Below, in pieces: positions 1-20,344 of a DNA stretch of 64,000 nt (positions within the stretch are counted from its first letter, which is position 1; each line of letters opens with the position of its first letter). The translations under genes and the position numbers were made by a program. Location: assembly GCA_003971905.1 (NCBI GenBank), contig RSEE01000002.1, positions 992,001 to 1,056,000 on the forward strand. Direction: 5' to 3'. The notes under the pieces are model-generated. The model was not told where the DNA came from. It was given only the letters and a program-made list of their open reading frames with translations, and searched no databases. This stretch comes from Moniliella sp. 'wahieum' (taxonomy: Eukaryota).

Positions 1-9
1 TCAAGCTGT

Positions 10-545
10 TCAAGCTTCAAGCTTCAAGCTCGAAGTGATCGCAGATCTGTCAAGCTTAATTAGATCAATTTCGATCGACCGTGGTATGTATTTGCAGTGC
101 CTAGTGGGGGGCGCCTGAGGCCTGAGAAGCATTCCACCGTTCAACGTTCAACGTTCAACGTTCATCGATCGTTCATCGATCATCGTACGTTCATCCACCC
201 ATCTTCTGGTGTCCTCATGCATCATGTCCTCCTGCATCATGCATGCCATGCCATCATGGGGCAGAGGGGCTAGCCTGGAGGCTAGTGGCATGCTGCAAGT
301 CTCACTGACCGGTGACCGGTGACGTATGACCAACTGATCGATGATGCAATGATGCATGATCGATGATCGATGATCGATGACGCGTGACGCATGGCGCATG
401 GCGCTCGATGACGTGTGACGTATGACGCGTGACGGGTCATATAGTTATACGAATGTGTCATCATGTGCCACGTGCCACGCGCCACGTGATTATTGGGCCT
501 GGACCCACGTGATGTGTGACATGTGACGTGTGACGTGTGATGCTT
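10..545. repeat. Cluster of 7-bp-period (TNA + palindromic 4-mer) arrays
   Basis: (TCA AGCT)n at 10-30; (TCA ACGT)n at ~141-163; mosaic (TGA NNNN)n at 306-439; TGA CATG / TGA CGTG units at ~517-540. Confidence 0.9.
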
Positions 546-1458
546 GTGATGCTTGTGGGGAAAGCCAGAGGAGATCGACGAGAGCAACGTGCATGGGACA
601 CTCCCGTGGAACCTGTGCACCAGGCAATCAATCAATACCTGGCAATTCCCAGTCAAGAGACTCAGCCCAGAGCCCATTCTGGCTGAGCCGGGTGCAACGG
701 TCAGTTCGCTGGCGCTCAGCTCATACGCTGATGCCGTTGGCGGACTACAGCCTATTACAGCTGCTATAGCATGTGCTACATGCAGCAGGACAGCCCCCAG
801 CAAGCCCAGATCCATAGCCCGACAGCCTGATGAACATAGGACAGAGAAACTGCACCCCTTTTTCCTGCTAGAGCGCATATGAGCTCTCGGGTTTGTACCG
901 GGTACCGATTATCGATTCCTAGCTTTACCGGTTTCACCGGTTACCAATGATTAATGAAAGCGGAAACAAGCTAGGTTCTTCTGTCTCTGTTAGTTGAATC
1001 GATAACGTTGTTTGATACAACCTTTCCAGCTTCTGATAATCGATAATCGAGATAATCGACGGTCAGCGAGTTCAGACTTCAATATAAGCTTCAAGCTTCA
1101 GGCCAGGGGCCTGAGGTACTATATACTCAGTAATAGTAGTCATTAAGTCATTAGTCACTACTAGCTTCACGGACGTGTATTGAGCAACTGATTACTATTG
1201 CTGATAGTGCTGATGAGTTCTGGGGGTTTCCTGGGGTACTGAGATCTGAAAGATCTGAGAATCAAGCTTCAAGGCCGGCCCATTCCCTCATCGATCTCAG
1301 ATCTCATGGAGTATCAGTATATCAGGGTCCCAGGGGCATGCGGATTTGCAGCGGACTGTTGAACACATTGACGTTGAGCGCTGAGCACGTACGTTGAGCC
1401 CCCGATTTGGCCCTTTTACTTTTGTTGTGGGCTACAGAACCATGCCACTGTATCGGTA

Positions 1459-1507
1459 TCAAGCTATCAAGCTTCAAGCCTTCAAGCTTCAAGCTTCAAG
1501 CTTCAAG
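1459..1507. repeat. (TCAAGCT)n heptamer array
   Basis: tcaagctatcaagcttcaagccttcaagcttcaagcttcaagcttcaag, read directly. Confidence 0.9.
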
Positions 1508-2657
1508 ACACGGCATGTGTGCTACGAGAGTGCCGCAGCCACAGCACAGCCTCTGCCGTCAGCGCGTCAGCGCATCAGTGCGTCTGGCCCCCAGACCCTC
1601 AGACCCAACCCTAACGTCTAAACCTCAGGCCCTCCTCACCTTTGACTTCTCGCCCAAGACTCTCCAGACCCTTCCCCCCTGGTCGGCCGCTAAAGCTTCT
1701 GGCTGGGCTCCCAAAGATCGCCTTATCCCCTAGTAGACTGATAGTCGATCTTTTGCCGATAGGCACCACAACAATATAACTAAGATCGTTAAGATCATCG
1801 ACCATCCTCCCATATCTCTATTTTGGGACCGTGTCATTGACAGAGCCTAAGGCTGGGACATAGAAACAGTATTTAAAAGCAGTTCAAAACTACGGCTGTT
1901 CAGTTCAAAAGAAACACTCAGACGTTCAGGTGTATCAATGCGTTAATATATGCCACTCAGCATTCGATTAGCAGAGGTAAACACCTTGCATTTTTATCGT
2001 TACGGTGTATAGGTTTGCTGTCCGCGGGGTGATAGTTTCTGGGAAAGAATGACACCAATGGGTATCAAACACCTTACTGTTTACCTATTGCATATTGGCC
2101 AGGGACGCGCTATCGAGATCCGGGATCGGAGCAGTTGCAGGACCACAAGCATCACTCTATGACAGTCTCAAAAAGTCGTCAACATTCCCTACTGCTTCAT
2201 CGGCCCTATAGGGCCTGTGAAATCTCCTGTTGCACGTTTTGGGCACTGTCTGGGGTGTACGGGTATGCAAATGAGGGCATTTGTTCGGGAGACCAGGCAG
2301 CTAGAGTTGGTATACTTAGCTGGATGATGTATACACGAGAGTATACGGAAGCCACCGAGAATATTTTTGGCCTCTCTCGTGGGGACGGATAGGTGCATAT
2401 GATCCGTATAAAAGGGGAGAGGGAACCAGGCTTTCGGCTGATGCGCCACAGTATTTGGACGCTATACCGGCTGTTAGACATTTCGTTGGTTATGTGTGAA
2501 CCACACACAGACCAAGCAAACCTATGCATTTTGCATTGGTGGAGGAAGACAAATGCCCATGCGTGCACCAACAGAGCTGTCCCGCAACAATTATCAGTCA
2601 CAAGTTAGTTACGACGCTCTAGATATACAGCTTCCTGCCTCTCTTTTACCGTTTTAC

Positions 2658-3102
2658 TGTAACGCGTAAGCTAGGCTCCGGCCTGGGAAACACCTAGTCT
2701 CTATAAAGCACATAGAACGATCACAGTGTGTACGTGGTGCGTTGGATATGAGATGGCCTGATCAAAGCTAAGTCCGCCTGCTCTTCACATGCCCAGTAGA
2801 GCGCACTGAGAAGTCCACCAAGTTTGATGATATGGCCCGTAAAAACCATGTACCGTGGCCCGAGTGGCCATGCCCGTGCGACAATTACAATCAGCGAGTG
2901 AGAATCTATCAACAAGGTGAGCGATAGGTACTAAAGGGAAGAGAAAAGGAAAAGGAGAAGAGGGCAGTACAAGCAACAGTGGGCAGAGTGTATACAGTTT
3001 CTGGTCTGCCCGCGGCAACTCTAGGGTCTGTAACCCTTTTTTCACAATTACTACTAATCAGCCGCCAGAACGCCGCCACAGGTACGACGTAGCAGCATTA
3101 CA
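2658..3102. mobile_element. Degenerate solo-LTR-like element sharing a segment with the 19514-20344 LTR
   Basis: Termini TGTAACGC...GCATTACA (7/8 inverted match). 2725-2885 aligns by eye in reverse complement with ~20188-20335 (shared gctctactgggcatgt, agcaggcgg, ttagctt, atcatca.acttggt). No matching TSD found, so the boundaries are tentative. Confidence 0.5.
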
Positions 3103-3317
3103 TGCATTACCAGGTATTCTTTAGGGTGCATCATCATGATGGGTACAGCTTTTCTAATTGCTTGCTTCCTGACCCTCTTGGTCCCTGCTCAACAACTCAG
3201 CGCCTCATCAGTGGCCGCGAAACGCTTCCCTCCCGCCTCCCACAAGGGTTTACGATCAAGAAACCATAGACTGCGAGAAGTATTGAGAATTTGTAGGAAT
3301 TTTGGGAATTGAATATT

Positions 3318-5323
3318 GAGATCTGAGTACTCAACTGAAGGAGCGCACATGAGACCTGACCCTGAGGTCTGACGAGGCTTGATGCTTTGAGATCTGTTGA
3401 GATCTGAGATCCTGAGACTGAGAGGCGAATAGTCTTTTAAGCGCCTAAAAGCGCTTTTGAGCTTCATGCAGACAGCGAGTCAGAAGTAACGTCTCAGAGA
3501 CATTGCGGTGTCGCACAGGCCATAATTCGCGGACTTTCTGAGGTTTTATATACGCCAGGAACATTTTGGAACCTGAGGCTCAGGCCTGAGCATACTGAAG
3601 CTTGAAGACTGTTACGCGTTACGTGAAGCTTGAAGCTTGAAAGTGGGACAGCCCCTCCATATCAATGAGGCGCAGTTGTGAAGCTTAAAAGTTGTGTACA
3701 AAAGGGGCCTGTAAACACGGCCTACAAGTACAACAAGCTAGCCTAAGGTAAGGCCATATGAACGTTCGCCGAAGCCTGTAAGGGAACCCCTGGAAAAGTC
3801 TACATAGAGCAATCCAACGGTGGTGGTGGTGGTCTGCTTGTAATGGCATGATGCCCCTGAACTTGAAGATGAGGCAGGAGGCCGGCAGGAGGCCGCGGCA
3901 GGTTTCCAAATTCATGCATGATGCATGATGCATCATGCACATCATGCCTATACCAGGCAAAGCCATACTGTTGGGGGAGAGACAGGGGTTCGAAGAAACC
4001 AATGATACACACGTGTAGGCGTCGGAGGTCAAATTTTAAAGAGGGTGTACATGGTACAAGGGAGGAAATGTAATAAGACCTAAGGAAGCCTAAGGCCTAA
4101 AGGGCTTGGTAAGGATCGATGATCGGTGATCGCAAGGGCCGTCACGCGTCACGCGTCGCCCGTCACGTGCAGACATGAGATCTAAGAATCTGAGGTCTGA
4201 GAGCGCGGAGATATGTGAGATCGATCGGAAACCATACAGTACGTGTGTAACGTAATAATTGTCTGGAGTAATAACATCAACTGCTTGCATGATGCATCAT
4301 GCATCAATGATCTGTAGGATTTGCGTACAGTAAGAAGACGACGTTACGCGCTAACCGGCTTGACCATGGCGGGCGTGGCGGGGCATGGACCGATTCGCAT
4401 TGAGCGCGTTGAGCGCTGAGCTGAGCACATTGACCTATTTTTCCGTTGTGGCAAAAGATGTGGCTGTGGCAGGTGTTACTAGAGGGGGGAGCATATGGCG
4501 GATGTAAAGGGCATGTAACTTGCAAACGAGTAGTGACATATGTAAACGCCTGATAACGGGTACGCGTAACGCGTAACGCGCAACGCGTAACGGGGGAAGG
4601 AAAAAGATACTGCAGAGTGGTGTGATGGGCAGCAAAGGCTCTCCTTAGGCCTCAGGGCCTCAGGGCCTCAGGCCTCACATGTCACCTCAATTCCTATCGC
4701 AATGGGCTGCAAAGGAGAGAGACATATACCCAGAGTTATCTCACTGCCTTTCACTCTCTCCTCACTGCCCGCTGCTCTCTCTACTTCCACGCAGTATACT
4801 CATCGCCCAGCCTGAGCCTGAACATCTGAGAACGCTCGCCACTGCAGTAATCGATCCCTATCGATTTCTGAGACCTCTCGCACTTGATTACCTACTGTGG
4901 TATCGGGATGGCGAAAGATGGAACAAAAGATGGCCTGTGGTGGAAGTTTGAGCCCTCCGGACACTGAATATTCTTAATCGTTCTGAGAGAGCGCTCAAAA
5001 AACTTGCATTAAACACATAGTAGTAGCTTGCATCACGCCAAGCCGTGAAGAATGAAGAAAAGTTAGAGTTAGATGATTGATGCGACCTCTCGAAGAGGCT
5101 CGCGAGGGCCTGAAGCTGTTAAGACACTGTGGCCTGGCCTGTTTTTGGGGCTATGGATGCGATCGAAGGGATACAAGAGGGCTTAGATTGCTGCTGTCGA
5201 CTGCCGGCACCTGATGAGGCCGAGGAGGCGAGGAGACCTGAGGCCTCAGCCTGAGGCCCTAGGCCAGAGTTGGAAGAACAGAACAGCAGTGGGGATGATC
5301 GATCGATCATCGATGGTCGATGA
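3318..5323. repeat. Dense field of heptamer palindromic arrays
   Basis: GATC cores ~3388-3415; AGCT 3596-3640; TGCA 3912-3945 and 4287-4306; CGCG 4141-4157 and 4560-4592 (TAA linker); GCGC ~4410; GGCC 4645-4677 and 5237-5258; TCGA 5296-5323. Confidence 0.85.
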
Positions 5324-8278
5324 AAAAACAAGATGATGGAAGGGAGACTAAGAAATACAGAGGATTTACTGAGTAATACTCATCCCATCAGTCACACCCA
5401 TCTCTGAGTGCTCAGAGAGTGCTCAGACCGAGCATTATACGGCTGTGACTAATACACTTGTATGAATTGAGTATACTTGTACCGAATACTGACATTCGTA
5501 GCCAAAGCAGTATTCTATGCAAGAAAATGACTCGGACGGAGTGCGACTCTCCGATGCATTCGGTTTGAGACATGTAGTGGCGCTTGAGGCCTGATGAGGG
5601 TGGATGGTGCGAACTGTAGTGCTAGAACCAATAAATGGGCGGGGCGAAGCAGGAAGGGAGGAGCGGGGAAAGTAGTTGTTGCGTGAAGTATCAGAGCGAA
5701 GTGGCGAAAAGAGATGTTAAAGGAATGGGCCACGAGATTAACGCATTTATCTGCACGGAGTTCCGACAGATCCGAGGTAAATAGAACTCCCAAGGCACGA
5801 CGGACGATGACTTTGACATTCTCGTGAGCTTGCCCCTTTGAGTGGGAGGATGCAGCAGCCCGCTAATGAGGTCAACGGCTAATACTCTCTTTATTAGTCG
5901 TTACCACTCCTTTTTAGACGCACGCGCGTCGACGAACGCATTTACGACGCGGCCCAAGCGCTGTCAGGGGGGGTGGAGAAGAGCCGGAAGGAAGTGCCCA
6001 AGAAGCTCGACGATGCCGACGGTCGCAATGTCGTCGAGCAAGCAACGCGCTCAATCACACCTGGCTCTCCTCAATCCCATGATCTGTGTGCCTTCGGCTC
6101 ACAAACAAGAAGTTCAGGTTGGTCTCCAGCTCCGCACCTGTTGTGCCGTTCCACGCACAGCATGGGCCAGTGTGTCGTGTCATGTCCTCGCTAAGCACAT
6201 CATGGCTTTAGCCTCACCCAGTCCAATTTTGGTGCATTTCACGAGGTTCCCATTCTTCACTGCGGCGATCCATCCCCCACGACCACATCCACGAGCCGAC
6301 TAAGGGGGGGGGGTAATGATGGGGCGAGGTGTGGAAGGATATGACGATGCGTATTATATTGACTACCGAGTGTTGAGACCTGAAGCCTTCGGAGGATAAA
6401 GAATGGAGATGGACCTCACTTTGTGGAGATCGGGAACGCGGGAGGCGCTGTCTGCGTACGGAAGGGTGGTACACGAGAAGAGCACGCGACGCCATTTGAA
6501 CGCCACGAGAAAACTGATCCAGCGACGGGGGTACAGGGCAACCCTCTTCTCATTCGCACGCCCCTCGGGTGCGAGTCAAAGTCGTTTGGGAGGGGAAGGG
6601 GAACGGACGGAGGAGGTAGCGGCGCTGTTGGCCCGCTGGCCAAATCTCGCCTCTTCGGGACTTGGGGAAAAGTATACGAGCTCCGCTGGCCCGCCTGCCA
6701 ACGTTCGCTCGCACGAATACAAGGTCCTGGGGACTGCTAAGAGGATCGGCGCTCTCCGCTGGCCCGCCAGCCAGTTTTCACCGTCACAAAAAATGGTTCT
6801 TGCGTGCGAACCCGGGTACTATACTAGACACTTGTCCCATTCAGATTATTCCTAGAGTCGAAGCATATGGAAGGAGGAGGGGGGAGAGAAGCCGAGAAGC
6901 GAGAGGGACAATAAGGGATTGGAGGTGGTTGGTGCAAGGCGACTTGATCAAGGCGACTTAATCTCACCCCGTTGCAATCCTGATCTGATGGCGGTTTCTC
7001 TGGTTCCTAAAGGGTTGACGCCAACAAGCAACGCACACCAGAGGTAACAGGTCAACAGTTTAGGCCCAGCATTTCTTTGTCTCAGCCTAAGCTCTCTGTC
7101 AATGATATCATTAGAGATCGAGATGTGGTACCTCGAACACAGTCCCAATGAAGGACTCCTGAAGCTTCTCTCAAGCGTTTCATCAAAGCGAATTGAGATG
7201 GCTTGCCTTAATTGTGCCCAACCGACGATGTAAACCATTGTTGGGGCGAGGGTTAAATACATGTCCGGTACACCTGATAACTATCATCATTTGCAAAGCG
7301 TAAGATATTAGGGATAGCGAAATGCTACACCTACCGAGCTCGCTCAATATGAGCCGGCATGTGCTGCTCACACGTATACAAAAATAACTAGAGGAGGCCA
7401 GTGGAGTCGCGCACACGTCAGACTTCTTGTTTCCCGCCACAGCTGCTTCCCAAAACCGGATGCAGTGTGAGGATACGAATAAGTTTGAAAGGCATATATG
7501 TGAGCGAAGAACCATCTCCAATGAGACTCTTCAGTAAGATTCTTCATGTGCTCAAACATCTTGTTGGCCGTCTTCGACGGTGTGACATAGTACCTTCCTC
7601 GTGTCACCATGGCCAGAGGGAAGGACAGGTCGCGAGTGCGTCCCTGATAATACTTGGTATTTTCTTGTCGCATCATTACGTTTGCTCCACAACAGTCCAT
7701 GCACCCCTTTCTCGCGGCGTTGCCCAAGGGGTTCCGTCTCCTCGCATGCTATTTGCCTGTAAGTGACCTTCATGGCCTCCTTTTTGGACCCGAGCCACTC
7801 ACTATACACATGCAGGATGTGTGGCCCGCACCTCCATTCCTGATCATCCTAACGCTCCTGGTGTCACACGGCAACACTCGCTTGTCCGTGCGTCTGGTCT
7901 TGCTTCCCCCGATGTTTCCTCGTCTTCCTCCACCGTCGGCTCATTGAAAATATGTGTACCCCGGTGGTACGCACAAGTCGGAAGATCGGCTTCCGCGCGA
8001 CCTCTCATGCAACGCCCTGCAAAACGCCCCGAAATGAATGTGTAAAAGGGGGCCGGGGATGGGACGCCTCTGAGAATTTGAACGTTCAAATGAACCCTGA
8101 ATAGTTGAAATATACCACCCATGGCCCACCTGAGGATTAGGTAACCTTGCCGCTGGCGTTGTCCACCGAGGCGACTACGACGCCATCAAACAGCCCATCA
8201 ACACCTGACCCGCCTACTCTGGCGGTTGTTTGAGTCGCTTTCTTTCCCTTTGTTCGCGCCGTGCTCGATCTTGGAACG

Positions 8279-9748: not shown

Positions 9749-11584
9749 GCAGTTCGAAATAGTTGTTATAACCAGCTGAGACGCGGGGGATTCCCTCTCC
9801 CAGCCTTCTGGACGGGAACGTACGCTTCGCCTGTCCCAAAACGCTACGGGTATCGTCCCATAGCATGTGGCACAGTCCCTGTGTGCCCTGCATTCTCTGA
9901 TGTGTGCCTCACTGACCCTGGGCCTAGTACGGCCTCCTATAGATGCACCTCTATGATCCCGACCCAACTCTTCTGACTCCAATCCATCACCTCCTCTCCT
10001 CATCCTTCTGCCCGTCCAGTCTGTTGACCAGGGTCCTATGGGCCAGCCACCCCCGCGGCACTCCTGACCATCTTACTCATCCGGGCACCACACCAGTATC
10101 CCTATCCCCTGGCCTAGTGCCGCTCTCCTTTCTTCTCCTTCTTCTCCTTCTTTTTCTGATCCTCAGTCTGGGTTCAACCCAGCTCCTGTCTTCTCTCTGC
10201 CATTGCACAACTGCACTTAGGACGTCGCTGGGTCACCAGGATCATTACAGTCCCCTAGGCCAACAGTCTCTTCTCCACACGAGGTTGATGGGGCTGCTCG
10301 TCCACGGAACCTCTGCCGTGCCCGTTCTCAAAGCCGTTCGCATGCGGTCGTGGGGGGCTGTTGGCCCTGAAGCTCCCTCTGCTCCCCGAACCCTCGGCTA
10401 TACAAGGCCCCACCCTTCTCATAGCCTTCCGTACCTCTCCTCAGAACTACATCCTCCTCCTCTTTCAGCATGTTGCCTTGTTTCCTTGTTTTTAGTCCTT
10501 TTTCTTGTTACTAGCCATAGTTCGTGGTTTTCCCTCACGGTCCACTAGGGTCTCCCCCTACTCTGCTCGTCAATTGATCAACCCAGTGCAAGCAACTCCT
10601 CCGCTTAATTGCTCCTCCATCTCCCGTCTTCAGCTTTCCGTTCTCAGTTCACCCAGGTCGCGAGGGACTCACAGGTGTCACCCCGAAACCCAGCTCAGTT
10701 CAGCCGCGTGTGACCCTGCCTACAGCCACGCCGCCCCCATTCCCAGTCCAGCTCCAACAGTCCACAGCGCAACATATCTACTATTGCCTCCTCCCCGTCC
10801 CTGAGCGCTGAGCGCGAAGGCTTCAGACACGTTACTGCCGCCCAAGTCGGTGCTACGCAGCCTCACTGTGGCTTGTACCCGCCTCTGCTATACGCCGGGA
10901 GGCCTCTCCACGGGCGGTCGAAAAAAATAATTTCAACTCTTAGGACACCCCATTAATATTTTGCTCTCAAAAATTCCTGCACGGCACAAAAACGCTCCTG
11001 GATATAGGACAGCGAATTATCTCCAGCGTAACATATTGCGCTCTCCTGACCCCCTAACATTGTTTGCTCTCCTACACCTCAGGGAACCATAAACATCTCC
11101 TGAGGAGCACAAACTGAAAAGCTCTCCTGAACCAGGGGATCAAACACGCTCTCCCGGGGCTACAGATACAAAAAGGCTCAAAAGATGATATAGATGAAAA
11201 CATAATTCATTGGCACGAAAGGCAGCCGCCATAGCCATGGCCTCGGTCGCCGTTACAATGGTAAATGGAACCACGCGCACACAGCATGATCGACACCTGC
11301 AGGTCCAACTGGTAGGTCAACACATGACAGCCTTCTTGCCAAATAGAAGATCCCAAGGGTTGCCAAGCGTATCAACCATGAAAGTTGGCCCAAAACCATG
11401 GTGGCGGCGACGATTCACGACACACAACCCAAAGACTTCACGTACACAAGACATTGGGGTTAGGGGACCATGCAGTGAGGCTGACGCACTGACGTCCCTT
11501 GCGCTCGGCCAGCGACACAGAAGAGAAGAGTAAATGTGTAGCCTTGGGCGTGAGGGCGAGAGGAACCTTCCAATTGGAAAGATC

Positions 11585-11815
11585 ATAGAGGGACATAGCA
11601 CGGGGAGGGCAACGTACCGTGCACTTGGATCTGCCGCGCGAGCATAGAGTGAGGACAAAGCATGGGGAGGGCAACGTACCGTGCACTTGGACCTGCCGCG
11701 AGATGAAAGAGTGAGGACAAAGCATGGGGAGGGCAACGTACCGTACACTTGGACCTGCCGCGAGATGAAAGAGTGAGGACATAACATGGGGAGGGCAACA
11801 TACCTTGCACTTGAT
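11585..11815. repeat. 62-bp minisatellite, ~3.8 copies, inside the TIR element
   Basis: agtgaggac recurs at 11648, 11710 and 11772; core ggggagggcaacgtaccgtgcacttgga. Confidence 0.95.
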
Positions 11816-12209
11816 GTAGGTAGATGGGAGGGAAGCAAGTAATGGTCAGTACAAGCAATTTCGACGTACCGAATACTGCAGGCAGGCGGGAGTGCATCGG
11901 TTTGTTGTCAACGCGGTGAAGTTGGAAGGGAGCGGGAATGGGGCATGCCGTTGGCGCATGCCTTTTATAGCTCCCAAATTGTTGGCACCGCCGCGCGCAT
12001 ACACTGCCCCCGTGCATCTCACAGATTCTCTGCGCTCTCAACAGAAACCCAAGCCCGGGCCAGTGTATGGCGATTGGTAATCAAGGTTCCCTGAAATCAA
12101 GCCTGGGGCCAGTGTGGCCTTGATGAGTCATCGCATTAGTTGTTACGCGATTGTGTATTATACCAGCTGACGCGCGTGGCACGTGACAGGAGGACGAAAG
12201 TAATATACC

Positions 12210-12913
12210 AAGGCTGGTCCACTTTCTATACCGCGACTTGGTCGAACTTTACGCAACTGAAGCGCCGTTCATTATTGGTAAGGTCCTGCGCATAGGGCGT
12301 AACAGTAACAACAGTGGAGTTGCATGGGTTGGATTTCGCCCATTTAAAATCACAGGGGTCAAGCACCGCTCCGGGTGCCGTATCGTTGAAGAGGTGGAAG
12401 ATGCTCCTGAAGAGTTTGCCTTACTTGATGTGAGTGGACACATCAACACTGTGTTGAGCTGTTTGAACTAACTATTGATCTCGTTATCAGAGACTTGGAA
12501 CGGAGGCCCCCTTCCAACACGCCTGCACTAAGCGCTGTCTCATTGACCCTCAAGGAAAGAGGGTAGTTGTGCATAATCACGAGATCGATCCCGAGACTGG
12601 CGACTTTGAGGAGATTGAGTACTACACTGAGGAAGCATATCACGAGGGGCAAGGCCGAAGGCCGGTACCCAATGAGTATGCCATACGCAGTCCTCCTCAC
12701 ACCAAACCCTATATGGACCTGCGCATCAGTCGCTCACTCACACACATCACGCCCGAGCGTTTGAGTAGGAACGTCGCCGCAAACATCGACAAAACGAACG
12801 CGATGGCGCACATGAACAAGAGGAATCAGACCAAGGCTCGGCTAGTAGCCAATGCCTTGGCGCCCGACACCACGAAGCCCCGGAGTCTGACTAGGACAGA
12901 GGCCCATGCATAA
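12210..12913 (+). pseudogene. Residual coding fragment inside the TIR element (possible transposase/accessory C-terminus)
   Basis: ORFs 12238-12471 (FIIGKVLRIG...GHINTVLSC) and 12569-12913 read as natural protein and may be joined by an intron; no catalytic motif visible. Confidence 0.35.
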
Positions 12914-13968
12914 ATGTATGTCCTCTCCCACAAATGACCCGAGCAGCCTTGAAGGCTTACGCATTCCGACAGCCTATACGTCTGATAAGGGTGCCGCTGG
13001 TCCAAATGAGCGTTGTAGGGTGTGTGGATAGGACCCTGGGCGAGAGAACAGTGCTCTTGTTCGCCCTTGGAATCTGGGCGAGCACGGTTGTGGGTTCCTC
13101 TCGGCGGCAGCGGGCTGGGCAAGCACATGGTGGGCAGGCGGTAAAGCAGAGAGAGGTCGGAGGCGTGGGATGAGGGCGTGTGCCAGGTCAAGCTGGCGTG
13201 CAGGACGGCAAGGGTGTAGCGCGGAGCGATGCCGCCGGTCTTATTCAGCGCGGGTGAGGGAGGCAGGTGGCGAGGCGGCGAGAGTGGCGTCGAGCATGGC
13301 TGTGTGGGGATGCTGACGATGGGATGGGTGGGCTGGGAATGGGGGTGGGAGAGCCAGCTGTGCGAGCCAAGGGGGGCAACTGGTGGGTAGGCGTGCGCTA
13401 TGTTTCAAGAATTGGCTTAAAATCTCAAGAAATCTCAACGTTGGGCCCGGCTGGCCCCAGTTGCGCGCCGAGACCAAAACAGCTCCTTGGCGCAGGACGC
13501 GGAATTCGCTCCTCTGTAATATTTTTCAAGCCTTGGCCGCCAGCCAGAGAGAGAATGGCCGCCAGAAGCTGATAAAATGAAATTGTGTTCTGCATTAAGA
13601 GTTTAAAATTTCCCAGTCGACCGCCCGTGTCCTTGTCTCTCTAGCCCCACTAGGACCCCCATCAATCATTCGCCAAAGCACGTAACTACCTTGAGTCGGC
13701 CCTTTAGGTTCTACAAGGGATTGTACCCCTAAACCCCCGGCCGGGCCCCCTGGCGGCGCACACCCGTGCGTGATACTGCCAGTGGTCTCAGCCATACCGC
13801 GTAACGCGTAACGGACAACCGCAGTTACAGGTGGCCAGTTTATTAGGCCACCGTTTAGAAGGGTATAGCATTTCTTTTTGTCCCAGACTTACTGCTGCAT
13901 GACATATATGCCTACGGCATAATTGTGTGAGACGGGCAACCCAGGATAGAAAAAGGAAGAGGAAAAGA

Positions 13969-19513: not shown

Positions 19514-20344
19514 TGTCACGGGCGGGCGCCGCCAGGGGGCCCGCCCTGGGGTTTTTGGGGTACAATCCCTTAGGCGACGGTAGGTCGACTCACGATAGTT
19601 TCGGGCTTAGGCTGGTTGGCGTGTCCGAGCGGAGCTAGGAACGAGGAGAGGCCTTTGGTGGGGCGGCTGCACGTGTGGCAAGGCTGCGTCTGCACCGGTG
19701 GGCCGTAGTAACGTGTCTGAAGCCTCCGGGACTTAGGGACGGGAGGAGGCAGCGGCGGACAAACACTGCCTTAACTGGGACTGGGAATCGCCGCGACCGA
19801 AGGAGGGCTCGCGCGATTGGACTGACGAAGGGCTGGAGGACGAGGTCGGAGATGTCGGACGCTAACAAGAGGAGCTGCCATTAGCTGGAAACGGACAGGA
19901 GTCGGACAGGATAGGCGGGAAAGGGACGAAGGTGGAGACGAGAGATGACGAGAATGGAAGGGGGGGAAAAGATCCCCATCAACCAGGGGTACAGGCAGGA
20001 TCAAAAGGGAAACGGATACAAGAGAGGGTGTAGAAAGGAAGACATGTCAAAAGCGGGGTTGGTCGCCGCAGGCGCGACCGAGAAAGGAAACGGAAACGGG
20101 GACGGGACGGCAGATGCCGCCACGGCACTGGAAGCTTGGTGGCCTTATTTATAGGCCGGCCGACTTGGACTTGGGCGGGGGGCGACTATTGTCGCGCGGA
20201 GCATGGCCCTTCGGCCACGATACTTAATTTAGCCAACCATCATCACACTTGGTTGGCCTGCGGAGCACGCTCTACTGGGCATGTTCGGAGCAGGCGGGCC
20301 TTAGCTTGGGTCGGACCATCTCGTGTCCGCCGCAGCCCGTGACA
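19514..20344. mobile_element. Solo LTR, 831 bp
   Basis: Termini TGTCACGGGC...GCCCGTGACA (10-bp perfect inverted repeat, TG...CA). 5-bp TSD ACCAT at 19509-19513 and 20345-20349. TATAAATA on the minus strand at ~20146-20153 suggests minus orientation. Confidence 0.93.

Follow-up and report, generated by a model that had tools for sequence, protein, structure and literature searches.

What process could place several different palindromic cores in one tandem array without breaking its repeat phase? The question is raised by positions 306–439 of the window, i.e. the whole 64,000-nt stretch of Moniliella sp. 'wahieum' DNA analysed here (assembly of 69.5 Mb in 223 contigs). The array starts with TGA CCGG TGA CCGG TGA CGTA TGA CCAAC TGA TCGA TGA TGCAA TGA TGCA. 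The middle part continues with TGA TCGA TGA TCGA TGA TCGA TGA CGCG TGA, followed by a 21-nt stretch in which TGG replaces TGA, and the 3' end is TGA CGTG TGA CGTA TGA CGCG TGA CGGG TCA. The TGA spacing is 7 nt except for two spacings of 8 and one of 24, which amounts to three phase slips. The longest chain of TGA linkers at 7- or 8-nt spacing contains 12 members, while none of 2000 dinucleotide shuffles of these 134 nt exceeded 5, a length that two of them reached. The mosaic array built on a TGA linker, as described in a first-pass annotation of this DNA, is thus real, and all four palindromic cores listed there (CCGG, TCGA, TGCA and CGCG) were found in it. Seven of its nine palindromic 4-nt units match a flank, and two, at 335 and 350, match neither. 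Among the 22 loose arrays with at least five linkers in 424 kb of the contig, it has the largest number of distinct palindromic cores (four).

The array is part of a non-coding region of about 6 kb that lies 5' of a Velvet-domain exon (L053:7519–7875, minus strand, about 2.1–2.5 kb before the window start); the window's densest zone of heptamers is on the same side of this exon. An ORF that runs across the array has no Pfam match. Domains encoded by window genes include Fungal_trans, CHD1 and SWIRM-associated ones; for the CHD1 frame, the second-best representative match (44% identity) clusters with a Ustilago maydis protein, and we take the source to be a basidiomycete related to the smuts. 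Coordinates of the features are collected in Table 1.

Table 1. Heptamer features of the window, with the evidence or reading for each
Feature	Positions	Strand	Evidence or reading
Non-coding hot zone	1..5000	.	Holds 45 of the window's 111 units; reaches about 1 kb to the left of the window
Mosaic heptamer array, TGA linker and palindromic 4-nt cores, intergenic	306..439	+	Parse, shuffles
CCGG block	306..322	+	Right flank CC and an inverted copy of it make up the first unit; AC on the left does not match
TCGA unit	335..341	+	Matches neither neighbouring flank; would need later mutation or unit loss
8-bp unit TGA TGCAA	342..352	+	Fits the +8 class, with two P bases and a single left-flank base kept
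TGCA unit	350–356		Second unit that matches neither flank, besides TCGA at 335..341
TCGA block to CGCG across one linker (GA-TGA-CG)	357..387	+	Switch without substitution under the flank-copy rule
Single haplotype event, TGA GCGC TGA GC	1375..1386	+	One TGA with non-palindromic flanks in the other haplotype; alignment, by eye
Single haplotype event, TGAAG CT TGAAG	3596..3607	+	One TGAAG in the other haplotype; haplotype gap comparison

Doublets of the form TNA-N4-TNA with the same N in both linkers were counted over 424 kb of the contig and compared with counts in five order-3 Markov sequences. The core was palindromic in 482 of 878 doublets, compared to 13–22 of 194–250 in the controls, far more often than expected by chance. 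All 16 palindromic cores are present. In the window, 42 of 55 exact 7-bp tandem duplications carry a palindrome-plus-one unit. With TCA/TGA and TAA/TTA linkers, 418 of the 482 palindromic units match at least one flank. The array had been likened to a constant linker with variable inserts; this description finds no support; the core is set by the two bases adjacent to the linker together with their inverted copy. As read from the sequence, each new unit would convert xy-TNA-ab into xy-TNA-ab-b'a'-TNA-ab, or arise by the mirror image of this change.

In a TNA-free test on the 424 kb, the combination of 3-nt linkers and 2-nt half-cores stood out, with TCA/TGA linkers enriched 84-fold and TAA/TTA linkers 41-fold; the remaining enriched geometries look like shifted readings of TNA-N4 units. 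The middle base was G or C in 85% of 162 isolated doublets, and outside TNA the target has little sequence preference. Units occur at a density of about 1.1 per kb, are clustered, and tend to stay out of long open frames, which cover 47% of the sequence and hold 51 of 355 sites.

The added bases repeat the neighbouring flank as its inverted complement. At non-palindromic sites, two such P bases accompanied by 0, 1, 2 or 3 extra retained bases of the far side were found 271, 42, 25 and 1 times, respectively (controls 3.3, 1.0, 0 and 0). Because this series stops sharply, the duplicated stretch must end two bases on either side of TNA, which makes a 7-bp target. The +8 and +9 variants also end exactly two bases past TNA, and no case of a +11 product, in which both overhangs are kept, was detected at non-palindromic sites. 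The middle base of the linker is repeated in 482 cases and complemented in 52 (controls 10–18 and 18–22, respectively), which indicates direct duplication and not inversion. Even palindromes were present in 412 cases, compared to 13–17 in the controls. The odd palindromes of hAT (Ac/Ds-type) footprints remained at about control level (57 vs. 41–47 for one form and 7 vs. 1–6 for the other), and footprints of this type were rejected.

The changes of core within arrays were analyzed next to each other in strict runs over the 424 kb. Among 201 adjacent core pairs, 17 are switches from one palindrome to another, and these differ at four positions (10 pairs) or at two (7 pairs), so single substitutions do not account for them. 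A linker with unlike flanks yields two different cores, depending on whether the right or the left flank is copied; the TCGA-to-CGCG switch at 371–378 is of this kind and needs no substitution. Both processes were simulated with parameters of our own choice. Slippage with substitution produced three palindromic cores in 1 of 8000 runs and four cores never, and left about 6% of cores palindromic. The flank-copy rule alone produced two cores in 1260 of 2000 arrays without any mutation, and, combined with 4–12 substitutions, at least four cores in 108–198 of 2000 arrays. The core switches and the simulations agree with the earlier proposal that array growth proceeds through repeated events, with the TNA linker as their anchor, rather than by slippage of one unit.

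Single events could be studied by comparison with contig C50, which is collinear with this contig over 124 kb, then over 424 kb, with 3.0% substitutions and by this collinearity appears to be the second haplotype. The length distribution of clean haplotype gaps has a peak at 7 bp, with 55 gaps, compared to 21, 20, 22 and 22 at 5, 6, 8 and 9 bp. One-base gaps are very common (1523), and the assembly may hold errors; such errors would not yield structured 7-mers. There are 179 gaps of 7 bp in total, and a looser flank filter, which required 8 or more identical bases to the left and to the right of a gap, gave 66 of this length. In 29 of the 66, the gap is a non-tandem 5-bp direct copy plus two inverted bases, with no prior unit at the site; the analogous copy-plus-inversion rule at 5, 6, 8 and 9 bp described 0 of 28, 2 of 26, 5 of 25 and 5 of 25 gaps, respectively. 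When the rule was applied explicitly, 35 of the 66 gaps were flank copies at non-palindromic sites (19 right and 16 left, 29 at TNA), some of which, in existing arrays, could be slippage. The other gaps comprised 14 duplications at palindromic sites, 5 exact duplications, 2 mixed cases, 3 others and 7 without linker duplication. The long allele of the 35 flank-copy gaps was found on either haplotype (17 and 18 cases), and their overhangs would be partly complementary at the inner side in 8 cases, at the outer side in 3 and at neither in 24. In this comparison of two haplotypes, a gap could also be a deletion between 5-bp repeats.

The array at 306–439 is arranged differently in the other haplotype (84 of 156 alignment columns match, compared to 401 of 459 in the flank), which places its exact history beyond reconstruction. 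Next to it, at window position 259, the other haplotype (L002) has about 60 extra bases of CATCATG units, which would suggest rapid array growth or loss after the haplotypes split. Thirty solo-LTR copies (about 25 kb) contained no heptamer insertion, with about 2–4 expected at the haplotype rate by our own estimate. One LTR copy sits inside a GGTCACC heptamer array (L035, ~1490–2360), and some arrays are therefore older than LTR insertions. The haplotype comparison also bears on the proposal that CpG deamination of CGCG gave rise to non-palindromic cores of the array: it could have yielded CGTG and CGCA, but the enrichment is slight (12 of 46 single-mismatch neighbours compared to 2061 of 9912 haplotype substitutions).

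We think that the arrays were probably produced by a DNA transposon with a TNA-centred target of 7 bp, which inserted time and again and excised through hairpins, with a contribution from slippage and point mutation. From the observed sequence rule, 7-bp limit, even palindromes and single haplotype events we infer that an element, hairpins and host enzymes were involved, and in which direction each event ran. A cut-and-paste element would enter a 7-bp target xy-TNA-ab, mostly with TCA/TGA in the centre, and duplicate it. Upon later excision by RAG/Transib-like chemistry, both flanks would be sealed as perfect hairpins, and the host would open each hairpin two bases past the tip, creating 4-nt 3' overhangs a-b-b'-a' and y'-x'-x-y. 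End joining would overlap the overhangs and keep one of them, with a gain of 7 bp in the form of TNA, palindrome and TNA, as a copy of either the right or the left flank; partial trimming would leave +8, +9 or an exact 7-bp duplication. Since every scar would supply another TNA target, hot spots would be hit anew. At a linker with different flanks one core would grow leftwards and another rightwards, and a third core would arise where a half-core is substituted and another event follows. Ordinary slippage and point mutation would both lengthen and erode the arrays. A fixed duplication with P bases at the outer ends is most simply accounted for by insertion and subsequent excision of a transposon that forms hairpins on its flanks.

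Hairpins made by RAG and Transib are perfect and give rise to even palindromes. The closest likeness to the units is in V(D)J coding joints (RAG hairpins, Artemis), where the even palindrome, as described, is the last two flank bases plus their inverted copy (PMC2175297). According to the same description, the main position at which Artemis opens hairpins is 2 nt 3' of the tip, which leaves 4-nt overhangs, and this dominant +2 opening agrees with the 2-nt P additions observed here (PMC2175297). Flank hairpins are described for hAT, Transib, RAG and MULE elements (PMC5499845). Transposases of the CMCT clade (EnSpm, Transib, Plavaka) are reported to share motifs with RAG1; the duplications described for Transib and the clade are, however, 2–5 bp long (PMC12730594), unlike the 7-bp TNA-centred one inferred here. 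A transposase of this clade is present in the genome (PF02992, on C17 and C34), and the duplication at the units falls outside the 2–5 bp range. The products here also differ from those of V(D)J recombination and Transib in being very uniform and recurring along the contig at the density given above.

Other systems share single properties with the units. Footprints of Ac/Ds and other hAT elements involve flank hairpins, short palindromic insertions and a duplicated target that is left behind (PMC5873905; PMC12730594). The Ac/Ds palindromes are, however, described as centred on the complement of the element-bordering base, an odd form not enriched here, and are more varied (28 types in 128 events) than the uniform product of this fungus (PMC5873905). 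Duplications of 7 bp are described in basidiomycetes for hAT7 of rust fungi and for Kyakuja (KDZ) of Agaricomycotina (PMC12730594). Kyakuja elements differ in that they are described as having no TIRs (PMC12730594), so TIR scans would miss them; weak searches gave no KDZ or CxC2 match in this genome. The MULE Muta1 resembles the proposed element in forming hairpins on flanking DNA, but has duplications of 8–10 bp and more than 90% precise excisions in yeast (PMC5499845), and no MULE match was obtained in an equally weak search. The '10-bp repeats' of Ustilago maydis, many small intergenic repeats of a smut fungus, have likewise been suggested to be transposon footprints (cited in PMC4081816); they are of a different length and were compared through this citing description. 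By analogy, the units would work like P-nucleotide joints of V(D)J/Transib type on a 7-bp duplicated target, and we do not claim membership in any named transposon family.

A search for the element itself was undertaken. No element with a 7-bp TNA-centred duplication was present among haplotype gaps of at least 60 bp, and TIR scans of 864 kb and further loci revealed no convincing one. The large haplotype gaps and the sampled repeat families consist of LTR pieces, TIR elements with 2-bp duplications and Helitron-like pieces (labelled as such by eye); two CACTA-like inserts that were measured have 2-bp duplications. Positions 10909–13629 of the window hold a CACTA-like insert of 2.7 kb that has short TIRs and a 2-bp duplication and is missing from the other haplotype; its six ORFs have no Pfam match, and the assembly contains no further full match to its left end. 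The high-copy repeat at 19514 was rejected as the source element, being an 831-bp solo LTR (19514–20344) with a 5-bp duplication. It is found in this haplotype only, with about 40 copies of 87–95% identity among the matches listed. A 5.4-kb TIR element on C50 (L112, ~1975–7350) lies between two direct copies of a sequence of about 315 bp, and C2 carries, some 53 kb beyond the end of the window, a 118-bp relative that shares these TIRs and has a 2-bp duplication.

Family searches of the genome, weak in that introns were ignored and several controls were silent, found no hAT (PF05699), Harbinger (PF13359), MULE (PF10551), KDZ (PF18758), Plavaka (PF18759), CxC2 (PF18803), DUF4218 (PF13960) or DUF659 (PF04937). 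Tnp2-family (PF02992) loci were detected on C17 (E 1e-12) and on C34 (E 7e-4, under the cut-off), one of which resembles the RAG1 RNase H by language-model features (0.92). At neither locus was a TIR with a TNA-centred 7-bp duplication found. Used as queries, the two proteins matched each other and an allele on C62 only, and homology searches with the C17 protein gave no scoring relatives. The C17 gene (~556–559 kb; L119 / L121–L122) occupies the same place in both haplotypes; it and its C62 allele (L125) have 91.5% nucleotide identity with 38 gap openings, and their flanks are collinear. Eight heptamer units are present in the kilobase upstream of it, and the gene is possibly immobilised or domesticated. 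The C34 gene (~513–517 kb; L120 / L123–L124) has long open frames and is single-copy in the assembly; its borders were looked for and not found, and the locus may be a hemizygous insertion or a collapsed region.

These results bear on another source of the units, a stationary or host nuclease, for which the C17 gene is the candidate, that would cut at TNA with a 7-nt stagger and leave hairpin or fold-back ends, with no insertion taking place. Such an enzyme would give the same products; the gene's syntenic allele, the failure to find a TIR or duplication around it, the units upstream and the failure to find a mobile element with a TNA-centred target in haplotype gaps or TIR scans would all suit it. 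However, a 7-bp duplication with hairpins at the outer ends follows from insertion and excision and not from a single cut. The C17/C62 pair is, moreover, conserved no better than the flanking DNA and has the gap openings mentioned, and both alleles have no acidic residue at the putative position of the first catalytic Asp. We consider a fixed nuclease unlikely.

Replication template switching or fold-back priming, in which two bases are copied backwards and synthesis is re-primed five bases upstream, is less probable still. It would need no element and would explain both flank-templated palindromes and events in both haplotypes. It does not predict the strong enrichment of TNA linkers, nor the fixed linker and P-length geometry with its hard 7-bp edge, and continued fold-back would complement the middle base, which is the rare outcome.

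The clustering of units, their avoidance of long open frames and the position of the array 5' of the Velvet exon are what might be seen if TGA/TCA were transcription-factor half-sites maintained by selection upstream of the Velvet-domain gene. Yet avoidance of genes is expected of any +7 insertion, all 16 cores are used and track their flanks, and the array is less conserved between haplotypes than the DNA beside it. Selection for half-sites is thus disfavoured as the origin of the arrays, and we give it very little weight, though later co-option may have occurred. Ordinary 7-mer slippage with point mutation, CpG decay included, may add to growth (25 of the 55 clean 7-bp gaps are plain tandem copies) but is ruled out as the origin by the doublet counts, by switches that need 2–4 substitutions, by non-tandem gaps with no prior unit to slip on and by the low share of palindromic cores left in the simulation.

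Stacked excision footprints of a transposon with a 7-bp TNA-centred target remain the explanation we prefer. In a bolder form, which we regard as doubtful, the transposase would be RAG-like, would belong to an undescribed lineage with a 7-bp target and might by now act from a fixed gene; it would have left tens of thousands of stereotyped P-nucleotide insertions in non-coding DNA and have remained active after the haplotype split, as a self-feeding, promoter-directed mutator. A literature search, with subscription papers outside its coverage, found no description of the 7-bp rule. If the preferred explanation is true, the arrays would offer a clear example from nature of tandem repeats that arise as excision scars pile up, an unusual route to new repeats between genes. 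The target of the enzyme (7 bp with a TNA centre), the type of hairpin and the position at which the host opens it would be readable from sequence alone. The older suggestion that intergenic repeats of smuts are transposon footprints would become directly testable. For this fungus, the process would be a main source of new non-coding variation: at constant density, 482 units in 424 kb extrapolate to about 40,000 per haplotype.
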